Positions 46,878 through 51,340 of a DNA stretch of 63,773 nt are shown here, piece after piece (the stretch's first letter is position 1; each line of letters begins with the position of its first letter). Both the position numbers and the translations under genes were made by a program. The stretch lies in contig JBBDWQ010000019.1 in NCBI GenBank assembly GCA_040902805.1, positions 1 through 63,773 of the forward strand, written 5' to 3'. Below the pieces are notes generated by a model. The model worked only from the letters and a program-made list of their open reading frames with translations, was not told the DNA's origin and searched no databases. The DNA comes from Acidimicrobiales bacterium. Its GTDB lineage: Bacteria > Actinomycetota > Acidimicrobiia > Acidimicrobiales > VFJN01.

Positions 46878-47519
46878 TCAGCCCAGGGGAAAGCCGACGA
46901 CTCCTTCGAGCTGGGTGAGTGCGTCCGTGGGGTCAATGACCTTGATGGTGGTCATGCCCATCGCGGCGGCGGGCTTGAGGTTTACGCCGAGGTCGTCGAG
47001 GAACACGGCCTCGCTCGGCTCGACCCCTGCGAGCTCACACGCGATCTCGTAGAACCGCGGGTCCGGCTTGCGCACACCGACCTTGCTTGACTCCACGATG
47101 TGGTGGAACAGCGCGAACACATCCTGCAGGTGGGCATGGCGCTCGTCGGTGGCTGGCCCAGCGTGGGGCGCCCAGTTGTTGGTCAGACAGGCCGTCACCA
47201 GTCGCTCGCGGCACCGTCGGACGGCCTCCACCATCGCTGGTCGGATCTCGCCGGAGAGCAGCGGCATCAGATCTCGAGCCGACATCACCTGACCGGCCGC
47301 CAGGCATTCGGCCTCGAAGAGGTCGCAGAATGCGTCAAAGGTGACACTGCTGCGCTCGAACTGAGCCCAGGCGTTGGTGTCGGGGTTGGTGGCGTTGATG
47401 GTTCGGATGAAGTCACGCGGGAGACCGCTGCGCTCCTCGAAGCGGTTGAACGCCTCGAACGGACTGGAGAGGATGACGCCTCCGAAGTCGAAGAACGCCG
47501 CTTTGATCGTCTCGCTCAT
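46878..47519 (-). CDS. HAD-IA family hydrolase (epoxide hydrolase N-terminal-like)
   Basis: FFDFGGV, LTNN, RKPDPRFY and FLDDLGVNLKPA. Confidence 0.9.
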   Translation of the reverse strand: MSETIKAAFFDFGGVILSSPFEAFNRFEERSGLPRDFIRTINATNPDTNAWAQFERSSVTFDAFCDLFEAECLAAGQVMSARDLMPLLSGEIRPAMVEAVRRCRERLVTACLTNNWAPHAGPATDERHAHLQDVFALFHHIVESSKVGVRKPDPRFYEIACELAGVEPSEAVFLDDLGVNLKPAAAMGMTTIKVIDPTDALTQLEGVVGFPLG

Positions 47520-48841
47520 GAGGCGAGCAGATCCTTGGCGAGGACTTCCCACATCTCAGTGGACAGGCGCAGGGACTCCACGTCAATGCGCTCGTCGTCC
47601 CCGTGAAACATTGTGCCGTAGTCCTCGAATGACAGGTTCGTGGAGAACAGCCCGAACCCGTACGACGTGGTGCCGAGCCGCCGGAAGAACCGCGCATCGG
47701 TGGCGCCGACGGTCATGTACGGGACCAGCTTGGAGCCGTTGTAGAACGATTGGGTGATGCGGGCGAGCGACTCCCACAGTGGCGTGTCGGTCGGCGACTC
47801 TGTGGACGGATCGTCGTGCGATCCGATGAGCTCAACCTTCGACGCGAGGTCTCCGAGGGCTTCGTCGAGCATGGCTCGGACCTCTGCCTCCCCGTGCCCG
47901 GGCAACGTCCGGATGTCGATCTGCAGGTCGACGCGGTCGGGGATGACGTTGATCTTCGTCCCGCCGTGAACGATCGTCGGAGCGAACGTCGTGTGTGTGC
48001 ACGCGTGGAACTGGCGGCCCATTCCGGCCGGAAGCGCGTCGCACGCCCCAAGAAACTTTTCCGGGTCGAGAAGCGGGCCGACGAGCTCCTCGCCGTACTC
48101 CATGCCCTCGAGAAAGCGACGCCACACGTCGTGGATCTCGGTGCGCGGCTGATACTCCGCGATGCGCTGAACAACGCGCGCCGCGGTCACCAGTGCGTTG
48201 TCTGTCTTGTAAGGCTGTGACCCATGTCCGGGCGTGCCGCTGACGCGAAGCTGTGCCCAGTGGCTGCCCTTCTCGGCGACGATCACGGGCAGCTTCAGCC
48301 CTGTCGGACTCGGGATGGGGATGCCGCCGGACTCGGTGATGACGTAGTCCGCCCGCACGGCATCGGCCTCGTGGGCCACGAGGTGCTCTGCGCCCATCGA
48401 GCCCAGCGCTTCCTCGTCCGCGACGGCCAGGTAGATCAGGGTCCCGCGTGGCCGAAAACCGCCTCTGGCCAGGCGTTTTGTGGCGACAGCCATCGACGCC
48501 GTGAGGTTCAGCATGTCGACGGCGCCTCGACCCCAGACCTCGCCGTCGATGAGCTCGCCGCCGAAGGGATCGTGCGACCAGCCCTCGGGGTTCACCGGCA
48601 CGACATCGGTGTGTCCCATGAGTAGCAGCGTCGGCGCGTCGGGATCGGAGCCTTCGATGCGCGCGACAACGCTTGTGCGCCCGGGCGCCGGCTCGTAGCG
48701 CTCGATCTCGACGCCGTCGCCGTTGAGGTATGACTCGAGCAGATCCGCGCTGCGAACCTCTTGTCCTGACTCCGCGGTGCCGTCGTTGACGCACGCGTTG
48801 CGGATGAGGTGCTGCAAAAGATCGGTGACCTCGTCGCTCAT
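47516..48841 (-). CDS. M20/M25/M40 family metallopeptidase
   Basis: GHTDVVP, WGRGAVDM, ADEE, GHGS and HGDDERI. Confidence 0.92.
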   Translation of the reverse strand: MSDEVTDLLQHLIRNACVNDGTAESGQEVRSADLLESYLNGDGVEIERYEPAPGRTSVVARIEGSDPDAPTLLLMGHTDVVPVNPEGWSHDPFGGELIDGEVWGRGAVDMLNLTASMAVATKRLARGGFRPRGTLIYLAVADEEALGSMGAEHLVAHEADAVRADYVITESGGIPIPSPTGLKLPVIVAEKGSHWAQLRVSGTPGHGSQPYKTDNALVTAARVVQRIAEYQPRTEIHDVWRRFLEGMEYGEELVGPLLDPEKFLGACDALPAGMGRQFHACTHTTFAPTIVHGGTKINVIPDRVDLQIDIRTLPGHGEAEVRAMLDEALGDLASKVELIGSHDDPSTESPTDTPLWESLARITQSFYNGSKLVPYMTVGATDARFFRRLGTTSYGFGLFSTNLSFEDYGTMFHGDDERIDVESLRLSTEMWEVLAKDLLAS

Positions 48842-48961
48842 CGCGTGCAACCTAGCGGGGTGCGGTGCTCGAAGATCCTGTGCGCGAATGCTGGCGTTCG
48901 GGACCGATCTGTTGCACCATCCTCATGTGATCCCGGCGCAACTGGTTGACTTGCATCTGGT

Positions 48962-50419
48962 ATGACCGTCAATCACGTCGTCGTAGACGGCTCGAACCTC
49001 GCGACCGAGGGCCGCACGTTGCCGAGCTTGCAACAGCTCGATGACGCTGTGCGCTCCTACATCGATCAGTTCGGTCCCAAGAACGTCACCGTCATTGTCG
49101 ACGCGTCGTTTCCGAATCGCATTGACGACAGCGAGAGCGCCTCGTTCGAGGAGGCGCACACGGCGGGCGAGCTCATCGTTCCGCCGGCCGGTGTGATCGG
49201 TCGCGGCGACGCGTTCCTGTTGCAGATAGCAGACCGCGCCGATGCAGTCGTGCTCTCGAACGATTCCTTCCAAGAGTTCCATGGGCAGTACGGCTGGCTC
49301 TTCGATCAGGGGCGTCTCATCGGCGGCAAGCCCGTGCCGCACGTCGGCTGGGTCTTCATGGAGCGCTCGCCGGTTCGCGGTCCTCTGAGCCGCAAGTCGG
49401 TGAGCGAGGCCAAGAAGACAGCTGCCAAGAAGGCGACGGCCGGCACCTCAGCTGCCAAGGAGAGCAAGGCTGCACCCGCCAAAGCCCCGGCCAGGGCCGC
49501 CAAGGAGTCGACGCAGCGCGGCGGCGCCTCGAAGCGGGCGGCCAAGGCGACGACGAAGCGGCCGTCCAAGCGCAGCGGCCGAGGACGTGGCCAGGCTGCC
49601 GAGGCACCCGCCGCAGCCCATCATGCCGAGCTCGCCGTGGCCGGCGAAGGTGATGGTCGCGGTCGTCGGCGTCGTGGAACGTCGGGCGGCGGTGGCGTGC
49701 AGCCCTACAACGACGCGCTCCCATTCATCGAGTTCGTCTCCGCTCACCCCGTCGGGTCGACCGTCAGCGGCGAGGTGGAGAAGTTTGCGTCGCACGGCGC
49801 CTATATCCATGCCGAGGGCGCCCGCGCCTATCTGCCCTTGAAGCATCTCGGCGATCCGCCGCCGCGCAGTGCCCGCGAGGTTCTGAGCTTTGGCGAGTCG
49901 TACACGTTCGTGGTCCATGCGTTCGACACCCCTCGGAGGGGAGTCGACCTGACCATGCCAGATGTCGTGGCCGTCACCGCGGGAGATCTCGCGGCGGCTG
50001 CTACGGCAAGCGGTCCCGTACCAGACCAACTGACAGAGGAGGAACGGGTGGCACCAGCCAAGAAGAAGAAGGCGGCCAAGAAGAAGGCGCCTGCAAAGAA
50101 GAAGGCAGCGGCCAAGAAGAAGGCCCCGGCCAAGCGCAAGGCAGCGGCCAAGAAGAAGGCCCCGGCCAAGAGGAAGGCAGCAAAGAAGAAGGCGCCTGCC
50201 AAGAAGAAGGCGCCTGCCAAGAAGAAGGCAGCCAAGAAGAAGGCTCCGGCCAAGAAGAAGGCTGCGAAGAAGAAGGCTCCGGCCAAGAAGAAGAAGGCTG
50301 CCAAGAAGAAGGCTCCGGCCAAGCGGAAGGCAGCGGCCAAGAAGAAGGCCCCGGCCAAGCGCAAGGCAGCCAAGAAGAAGGCTCCGGCCAAGAAGAAGAA
50401 GGCAGCCAAGAGGCGCTGA
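48962..50419 (+). CDS. NYN/PIN (Zc3h12a-like) ribonuclease, S1 domain and histone-H1-like Lys/Ala/Pro tail
   Basis: [21 protein letters not shown] and VLSNDSF acidic PIN motifs, an S1-like segment ([19 protein letters not shown]) and a roughly 123-aa PAKKK repeat tail. Confidence 0.85.
50048..50419 (+). repeat. Low-complexity tandem repeat encoding (K)[10 protein letters not shown] units; possible independently initiated histone-like protein
   Basis: Repeated GCCAAGAAGAAGGCNCCNGCNAAG units. In-frame GTG at 50048 preceded by AGAGGAGG (50035-50042). Confidence 0.7.
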
Positions 50420-50459
50420 CCCGCTCTCGCGGGGGTGCCCGCGGTGCGGAATGCACCAG

Positions 50460-50500
50460 GGGATCGGGTCGGCGTGCCAATGGCATGCTGGCCCGGTCCC
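50460..50500 (+). terminator. 19-bp RNA hairpin with four G-U pairs downstream of the NYN/histone-like gene
   Basis: GGGATCGGGTCGGCGTGCC-AAT-GGCATGCTGGCCCGGTCCC. All four non-Watson-Crick positions are G-U on the plus strand. Confidence 0.6.
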
Positions 50501-50539
50501 ACGGGCAAGGGACCTGCGTCTCGGCGGTAGCGTCGTCAG

Positions 50540-51340
50540 GTGCGCCTTGCTACCTGGAATGTGAACTCACTGAACGCTCGTCTAGAACGGGTGGAGGAGT
50601 GGCTCGACATCTGCCAGCCAGACGTCCTCTGCATTCAAGAGACGAAGATGGCCGATACCGCGTTTCCGGCCATGGCTTTCTCGGCTCGGGGCTACGAGAG
50701 CGCCCACCATGGTGAGGGCCGATGGAACGGTGTAGCGATCTTGAGCCGGGTGGGGCTCGACGACGTCGTGGTGGGATTCGCGCCGGATCCTTCGGTTGCC
50801 ACGGACGCCCCGGACCCTGAGGCGCGGCTGATCACCGCGACATGCGGGGGCGTGCGAGTCATGAGCGCCTACGTGCCGAACGGTCGGGCCCTCGAGGACG
50901 ATCACTACCAGTACAAGCTTCGGTGGCTCGATCGTCTCGTCGGGCACCTTGATCGCACGGCCGATCCGGCGCAACCGACAGCGGTCTGTGGCGACTTCAA
51001 CGTGGCTCCCGCCGACATCGACGTGTGGGACGCCTCCGCGGTCGTGGGTGCCACCCACGTGAGCGAGCCGGAGCGCGCCGCACTGGGTCGGCTCCGGGAC
51101 TGGGGCCTGCACGACGTCTTCCGCGACCAGTTCCCCGACACGGAGCGTCTGTTCTCGTGGTGGGACTACCGCGGGGGGAACTTCCACAAGGGGATCGGCA
51201 TGCGCATCGACCTCATACTTGGGTCTTCCTCGATCGCCGCCGCCCTCGACTGGGCGCTGATCGATCGCAACGCCCGCAAGGGCAAACAACCCTCGGATCA
51301 CGCTCCCGTCGTGGTCCAGCTGGCCGAGGTGTCGCCGTGA
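50540..51340 (+). CDS. xth: Exodeoxyribonuclease III (AP endonuclease)
   Basis: ATWNVNS, QETK, YVPNG, GDFNVAP, FSWWDYR, RIDLIL and SDHAPV. Confidence 0.95.

Follow-up and report, generated by a model that had tools for sequence, protein, structure and literature searches.

A candidate translation start nested at the lysine-rich tail of a putative NYN–S1 ribonuclease gene in Acidimicrobiales

We describe here a gene within a 63,773-nucleotide (nt) stretch of DNA from an Acidimicrobiales bacterium (contig JBBDWQ010000019.1 of assembly GCA_040902805.1), the whole of which is referred to as the window. Its open reading frame (ORF) encodes, in order, an NYN nuclease domain, a basic linker, an S1 domain and a lysine-rich tail, and at the exact point where the tail begins it carries a Shine–Dalgarno (SD) core followed by an in-frame GTG. 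Alignments of orthologous loci show that selection at the nucleotide level acts on this SD core together with its start codon. Our preferred reading, with a probability of about 0.72, is that the nested start is in use and that the locus would give two products, a tailed ribonuclease (RNase) and the free tail; the reading is well supported comparatively, and initiation itself we infer. The features on which the argument depends are the following.

48962..50419, + strand: full-length ORF; ATG start, 485 amino acids (aa), 51.0 kDa, isoelectric point (pI) 10.6
48962..49330, + strand: NYN/PIN nuclease domain of the RNase_Zc3h12a type, aa 1-123 (Pfam, phmmer, AlphaFold2, Foldseek)
49331..49723, + strand: basic disordered linker, aa 124-254 (AlphaFold2 confidence score pLDDT mostly <50; composition)
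49724..49966, + strand: S1-type OB-fold domain, aa 255-335 (Pfam, phmmer, AlphaFold2, Foldseek)
49967..50036, + strand: variable junction linker, its last codons (GTA CCA GAC CAA CTG ACA) AT-enriched, as judged by third-position GC content (GC3)
50037..50042, + strand: SD core AGGAGG, coded xAG GAG Gxx (sequence reading, conservation)
50048..50050, + strand: in-frame GTG, the proposed internal start, 5 nt 3′ of the SD core
50048..50419, + strand: nested in-frame ORF, equal to the tail; 123 aa, 13.0 kDa, pI 12.0, predicted to be disordered
48946..48951, + strand: TTGACT box, 10 nt before the annotated, SD-less ATG

The nested site and its conservation

The architecture of the ORF is certain, and re-reading of the sequence upheld each element that an initial annotation of the window had listed, namely the ORF itself, the order of NYN, S1 and tail, the acidic motifs, and the positions of the SD core and GTG. 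Specifically, AGAGGAGG occupies 50035-50042, the spacer AACGG 50043-50047 and the GTG codon 50048-50050. This GTG is codon 363 of the ORF and the first codon of the tail, 1086 nt (362 codons) from the ATG, and spacings of 5-6 nt are the commonest between SD and start codon ahead of long frames in this genome.

Our comparison covers 142 loci, which comprise the window family (L001-L030), other genera of the family (L031-L050), metagenome contigs (L051-L130) and other families of the order or class (L131-L142). One of these (L011) comes from an unpublished genome (G026) and is present as a single row in the counts, with no claim resting on it. An S1 match is found in 139 of the 142 loci, and all counts of nested sites use these 139. 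An in-frame AGGAGG followed after 5 or 8 nt by GTG or ATG is present at the boundary of the lysine-rich tail in 67/139 loci, which answers positively the check, named by the initial annotation, of whether the SD and start are conserved in orthologs. The 67 sites divide into 57 with GTG at 5 nt, 6 with ATG at 8 nt, 3 with ATG at 5 nt and 1 with GTG at 8 nt; the remaining loci either have no nested site (64/139) or are cut by contig ends (8/139). On a tree of the NYN and S1 domains, the site-bearing loci fall into three groups, which are the window's own clade, where the site and its GTG are kept in 34/35 rows, a distant group with S1 domains that share only 45-65% identity with that of the window, and one isolated case. 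The same pattern is scarce upstream in these ORFs, with only 3 in-frame sites in 44,770 codons. In the 61 loci for which the short product was read, its second residue is Ala, Thr or Ser in every case (61/61), and the complete short products span 55-154 aa; one extra value of 431 aa is taken to be L020, whose tail runs out of frame.

The evidence that is independent of the search pattern comes from within clades. In the window's genus and its sister genus, all 24 loci read (G/A)AG GAG G(A/C)A C(G/A)G GTG GCA; the amino acids encoded differ among loci (E/K, E/A, R/Q), yet every letter of AGGAGG and of GTG is fixed, and the variable letters at the junction are those of the spacer only. Across a codon alignment of 33 window-clade sequences, the junction is the best-conserved 18-nt segment of the whole gene (0.968) and outscores the catalytic motifs despite the otherwise variable linker that surrounds it. 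Third-position conservation in these sequences is 1.0 over the six junction codons, as against a gene mean of 0.692, and the longest run of invariant third positions, which number 35 in 329 columns gene-wide, consists of these same six codons. Rare codons are fixed at the junction as well (usage of GAA is 14%, GCA 9%, ACA 5% and CAA 13%), and GTG accounts for 37% of the Val codons in these genes. Among the distant loci, 21 distinct sequences keep GCC GAG GAG GCG CCn GTG, and 3/76 third positions of their S1 domain are invariant. Relatives of this set have exchanged Val for Met, either with one extra spacer codon (AGGAGG-8 nt-ATG) or with ATG at 5 nt. This exchange of GTG for ATG is the behavior that would be expected of a start codon, not of a Val residue.

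With respect to local context, the 15 codons before the nested start have a GC3 of 0.57, compared with 0.85 for the remainder of the ORF upstream of the site (n=61 loci). The minimum free energy of folding between positions -30 and +20 is -10.1 kcal/mol at the nested site, -17.3 kcal/mol for background segments and -10.0 kcal/mol at the annotated start (n=61), and a median of only 6.1% of background segments are as weakly folded as the nested site. The annotated ATG itself has an SD core 4-18 nt upstream in 4/132 loci. What precedes it in 92/132 loci is TTGA[CA]T, and 82 of these boxes end exactly 10 nt from the ATG. Such a box might serve as a promoter or operator, or as a signal for initiation without an SD. 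A consensus scan gave no sigma-70-like sites in 48700-50700, a range that covers both the TTGACT box and the question of an internal promoter; strings resembling TACAAC or TACCAT 5′ of the nested site, sought by eye, were inconsistent across lineages, and Rfam returned no match at E<=1 over 48700-50700. A second box, (A/G)TCC, is seen at about 48921-48924, some 24 nt further 5′ of the TTGACT box. The TTGACT box suggests that the two starts use different initiation routes, of which the internal one would be classically SD-led; as the annotated start is without an SD, initiation may be stronger at the internal site.

Two other candidates for translational signals were set aside. A frameshift of the dnaX or prfB type lacks a slippery heptamer, and frames +1 and +2 run without a stop over the next 150 codons. 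In a sister genus (g3), a GAGG lying 8 nt 5′ of an ATG ahead of the tail, within the residues EALG-M, was considered as a start and rejected, since the Met changes to Ile, Leu or Thr in relatives; the loci concerned, many of them with this candidate, are L025, L028-L030, L032, L033 and L061.

The predicted enzyme and its tail

The amino-terminal domain matches Pfam PF11977 (RNase_Zc3h12a) over residues 4-108 with 28.9 bits, above the gathering score of 23. Its acidic motifs, which the initial annotation had described as intact, are all there: DGSN (9-12), DA (47-48), GD (82-83) and SND (99-101), and an alignment of 32 sequences shows these, with D47 and E105, as either invariant or conserved to 90% or more. 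Phmmer retrieves KHNYN (8wzc_A, E 2.3e-4), and residues D9/N12, D83, S99-N100-D101 and E105 line up with KHNYN and ZC3H12C. An AlphaFold2 model of the protein, built on the 32-sequence alignment, gives this domain (aa 1-120) a pLDDT of about 66-82 and a PIN-like fold of three layers. For this fold Foldseek against the PDB returns PIN domains of Regnase-1, ZC3H12B/C and KHNYN, namely 5h9v, 6sjd, 7ndi, 3v34 and 8wzc, at E 2e-5 to 8e-5 over 130-135 aligned columns. The acidic motifs are thus aligned and near-invariant, and therefore the nuclease site looks intact. The product is a putative endoribonuclease with an NYN domain of the Regnase/KHNYN type.

The likeness to Regnase-1/MCPIP1 (ZC3H12A), ZC3H12B/C and KHNYN extends over the Pfam family, the DGSN/D/SND motifs and the predicted fold, and specificity would probably be supplied by an attached RNA-binding module, as in those proteins. 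The window protein differs in being bacterial, in having two long basic disordered segments, and in its partner module, which is an S1 fold where the others have a CCCH zinc finger or KH domain; Pfam finds no family of zinc fingers in the window protein, where S1 lies downstream of PIN instead. According to the available text of PMC5499597, it is unknown what the bacterial proteins of this Pfam family do.

The S1 domain scores just below the cut-off for PF00575 (residues 262-331, 21.7 bits, cut-off 22), and NCBIfam likewise gives only sub-threshold matches on the whole protein (bS1 models and NF038053, the latter with 14.6 bits against a cut-off of 80). Phmmer matches the S1 part to bS1 chains in the PDB (E 3.3e-5), the modeled barrel has a pLDDT of about 88-94 with strands at 267-276, 279-284, 287-292, 313-322 and 327-331, and Foldseek superposes it on a bS1 domain of M. 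tuberculosis (4nni_A, E 2.8e-6) with an rmsd of 1.5 over 78 columns. The linker at aa 124-254 is rich in Lys, Arg, Ala and Gly, with an RGG/RRRR-like stretch towards its end, and its segment at aa 140-250 has a pI of 11.7. AlphaFold2 predicts disorder for this linker and for all residues past 339. In the model, the nuclease and the S1 fold sit between or beside two disordered basic segments, the second being the 123-aa Lys/Ala/Pro tail. RNase E also joins an S1 domain to a disordered basic region, which organizes RNA-decay bodies. The window protein resembles enzymes of that type in combining a nuclease, an S1 fold and long basic disordered segments, whereas the catalytic domains are unrelated (NYN/PIN against the RNase E/G core).

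The tail comprises 60 Lys, 45 Ala, 11 Pro and 6 Arg in 123 aa, with no Asp or Glu, and its DNA is a tandem repeat with periods of 18/33/51 nt at 50054-50411. No Pfam family was found on the tail alone, PF07382 (HC2) being absent at E<=0.01, and PF07382 gave no match to the whole protein at E<=1; a precomputed PF07382 match is present on the tail of many homologs. Lys and Arg make up at least 30% of the last 80 residues in 102/120 homologs among the matches listed, and the Lys fraction of tails is 0.27 in loci with the nested site versus 0.14 in loci without it. Lysine-rich sequences of this sort are described, in the available portions of the respective reports, for the tail of mycobacterial HupB (PMC5676037), the PAKKA repeats of M. 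smegmatis Ku (PMC3553676) and the lysine repeats of actinobacterial TopA (PMC7398561). The window tail shares with these and with chlamydial Hc2 (PF07382) a Lys/Ala/Pro repeat composition, the absence of acidic residues and predicted disorder; it differs in sitting on an RNase rather than on a DNA-binding protein. By composition, then, the free tail would be a polycation of the linker-histone, Hc2 or HupB-tail kind. Any role for it as a nucleoid protein, competitor or condensate partner is conjectured from this composition and from existing knowledge of the HupB, Ku and TopA tails.

Other lysine-rich frames occur outside the window in the same genome (G000; contigs C41, C6, C24 and C49): a 971-aa TopA-like frame, a 154-aa frame with a phasin-like N-terminal part, a frame at a contig start that opens with a lysine-rich segment, and a lysine-rich frame partly masked by N. 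An SD and start at the tail boundary are absent in the two of these that were checked (the TopA-like frame on C41 and the phasin-like frame on C6). In L020, L022 and proteins P0031, P0039 and P0052, the tails run on in another repeat frame (QEGRS.../RRLRP...), and these frame switches indicate indels of the repeat, which are probably errors of assembly or of long reads.

Distribution and neighborhood of the gene

The gene is present in 76/80 genomes of the window's family and in 28/29 of the high-quality ones, and this near-universal presence suggests a housekeeping role. NYN and S1 lie in one frame in 127/127 loci. The initial annotation had raised the worry of an assembly fusion, which the conserved fused frame, together with the spread over the family, excludes. 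With regard to reads, a Logan contig of run X1, a possible source sample, is identical over 49600-50070 and gives no independent support, and a contig of DNA run X2 reaches only 49949.

A protein search with residues 1-360 gave 6464 matches at E<=0.001 among 8000 scored candidates; the homologs are named 'NYN domain-containing' or 'S1 RNA-binding domain-containing' and come from metagenome-assembled genomes of Acidimicrobiia, Acidimicrobiales and Microthrixaceae. In a sample of 301 genomes from the phylum, a stricter first look at E<=1e-10 found at least 13 with a match, of which one is the window's own genome, 11 are of the same order and 1 is of the same class. The gene is thus conserved and was seen here only within the window's own class. 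One form without a tail was observed in L134 (genome G252, minus strand, 961-1935), where a 324-aa protein made up of NYN, a lysine-rich linker and S1 ends directly behind S1; the next genes are a dehydratase-like one and, after it, one for exonuclease III (Exo III).

Two of the neighboring genes in the window were used for synteny.

47516..48850, - strand: divergent M20 peptidase gene
50540..51340, + strand: Exo III gene (xthA-like, PF03372)

A HAD hydrolase gene and the M20 peptidase gene lie upstream, and the latter is kept in 92/115 loci. Downstream, the same-strand Exo III gene is kept in 80/96 loci with enough downstream sequence, and a thioesterase gene is also found on this side.

Alternative readings and implications

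In terms of mechanism, 30S subunits would bind AGGAGG at 50037-50042 within a weakly folded, AT-enriched stretch, and initiation at GTG 50048, the first codon of the tail, would provide a second translation start. One mRNA would then be read into two proteins, the 51-kDa tailed RNase and a free 13-kDa polycation, and the short protein may bind polyanions (DNA, RNA, polyphosphate), sharing the sites of the RNase tail or competing for them. A stronger form of this proposal has the locus yield chiefly the short isoform, a genuine protein of the linker-histone kind associated with the nucleoid or with RNA, its dose coupled to that of the identically tailed RNase, with the ratio of the two starts setting the access of the RNase to shared polyanion surfaces or condensates; this we regard as doubtful.

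Several observations weigh against use of the nested start. A crude count places strong SDs ahead of only ~185/2180 long frames in the genome, and therefore SD-led initiation is not the rule in this organism; the 3′ end of 16S rRNA, against which the anti-SD would be compared, was not found in the assembly. AGGAGG-N3-9-ATG/GTG occurs in frame 96 times in the 670,853 codons of the coding frames of this genome, with 52 of these sites >100 codons deep, and because of this frequency the window taken by itself is weak evidence, and the comparative data carry the case. The loci are related, and the tree requires a minimum of 4 changes of state, such that they represent few independent events. Moreover, the search pattern required AGGAGG and a start, which makes invariance counts over all 67 loci partly circular, and the non-circular tests are those made within clades. 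Past S1 there are also 24 AGGAGG hexamers with no start following. The orthologs without the nested site include the other five genera of the window's family, where tails are present, which means that the enzyme can do without the short product. The initial annotation's proposal of a nested SD and GTG giving two products stands as to the presence of the site, which the comparison shows to be conserved, and is narrowed by its absence from 64/139 orthologs and by the lineage that has no tail at all; the nucleoid-tethered ribonuclease that the initial annotation also envisaged, coupling RNA decay to the nucleoid or to condensates, is conjectural. On these comparisons, the two-product design is specific to certain lineages and is not a property of the whole family. 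Finally, the search of sequencing runs listed no RNA run containing the stretch.

The conserved letters might have other explanations, each of which meets some of the same data. The simplest is chance, the motif being nothing but two Glu codons (GAG makes up 86% of Glu codons) followed by Val, and the 96 in-frame sites in the genome show that such arrangements do arise. However, the site is kept in 67 loci through amino acid changes that spare the SD letters, no change from Glu to Asp occurs in the positive clades, rare codons are fixed, and the loci are not near-identical copies (S1 identity to the window is 45-95%), all of which renders chance extremely improbable. It is also very unlikely that the SD and GTG are an unused relic of a once separate downstream gene for a histone-like protein, left behind when the upstream stop was lost. 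One ancient origin would fit the same encoding in distant lineages (xAG GAG Gxx ... start, then A/T/S-P/A-x-K-K), and the tail-less form in L134 demonstrates that the modules are separable; nonetheless, unused sites decay, and the 33 window-clade sequences show no third-position change over 6 codons, against a mean conservation of 69% at their other third positions, whereas lineages that lost the site vary freely at the junction. Selection on AGGAGG might instead operate at the level of RNA or elongation with no free tail protein accumulating, for example as an anti-SD pairing pause before an AAG-rich tract or as an autoregulatory binding or cleavage site. Nucleotide conservation alone is silent on which function is selected, the site does precede a 123-codon tract in which half the codons are for lysine, and an AGGAGG with no start is found at some acidic/basic boundaries in site-negative lineages (L038, L127-L130). 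A pause or binding site, however, needs no in-frame ATG or GTG at 5 or 8 nt, and 34/35 window-clade rows have one; in other lineages GTG is exchanged for ATG and not for other Val codons, the spacer is the sole variable part, the context, AT-rich and weakly folded, is the same as at the annotated start, and no Rfam family is matched. We therefore consider this explanation unlikely and retain translation from the nested start as the better account.

A separate alternative concerns the enzyme, which, rather than taking part in general RNA decay, might act at the chromosome on substrates linked to DNA (single-stranded DNA, R-loops, repair intermediates). The Exo III gene that follows on the same strand in most loci would suit such a role, as would the resemblance of the tail to the DNA-binding tails of actinobacterial Ku, TopA and HupB, at least as these appear in the available portions of the reports cited above. 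Synteny alone is weak, though, the nearest solved relatives (Regnase, ZC3H12B/C, KHNYN) are RNA endonucleases, and S1 is an RNA-binding fold, which makes a DNA-linked substrate improbable in our estimation.

In-frame internal starts that give C-terminal proteoforms are familiar in bacteria from IF2 alpha/beta, ClpB 95/80 and the long and short forms of CheA. The window gene is like these in that one gene would give two products with a common C-terminus through an SD-led codon inside the ORF. It is unlike them in that the short product would be a pure low-complexity polycation without a folded domain, and in that the support is comparative only, with a perfect internal SD and an annotated start that has none. 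Internal starts have been mapped genome-wide with retapamulin, according to the available text of bioRxiv 10.1101/520783. Our literature search, in which subscription journals were not covered, turned up no publication dealing with this protein family or with a nested start in it. What is new is the combination of a histone-like polycation nested in the gene for a Regnase-type RNase, in-frame starts and H1-like tails each being known already.

If the nested start is used, this locus would be a comparatively supported gene within a gene, from which a disordered, histone-like polycation is made both in free form and as part of an enzyme. Gene callers would miss the 13-kDa product, since it shares the frame of the longer ORF that contains it, which serves as a warning for annotators. 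The arrangement would also offer a genetic handle on the role of lysine-rich tails in Actinomycetota, and on whether cells place RNA decay at the nucleoid or in condensates.

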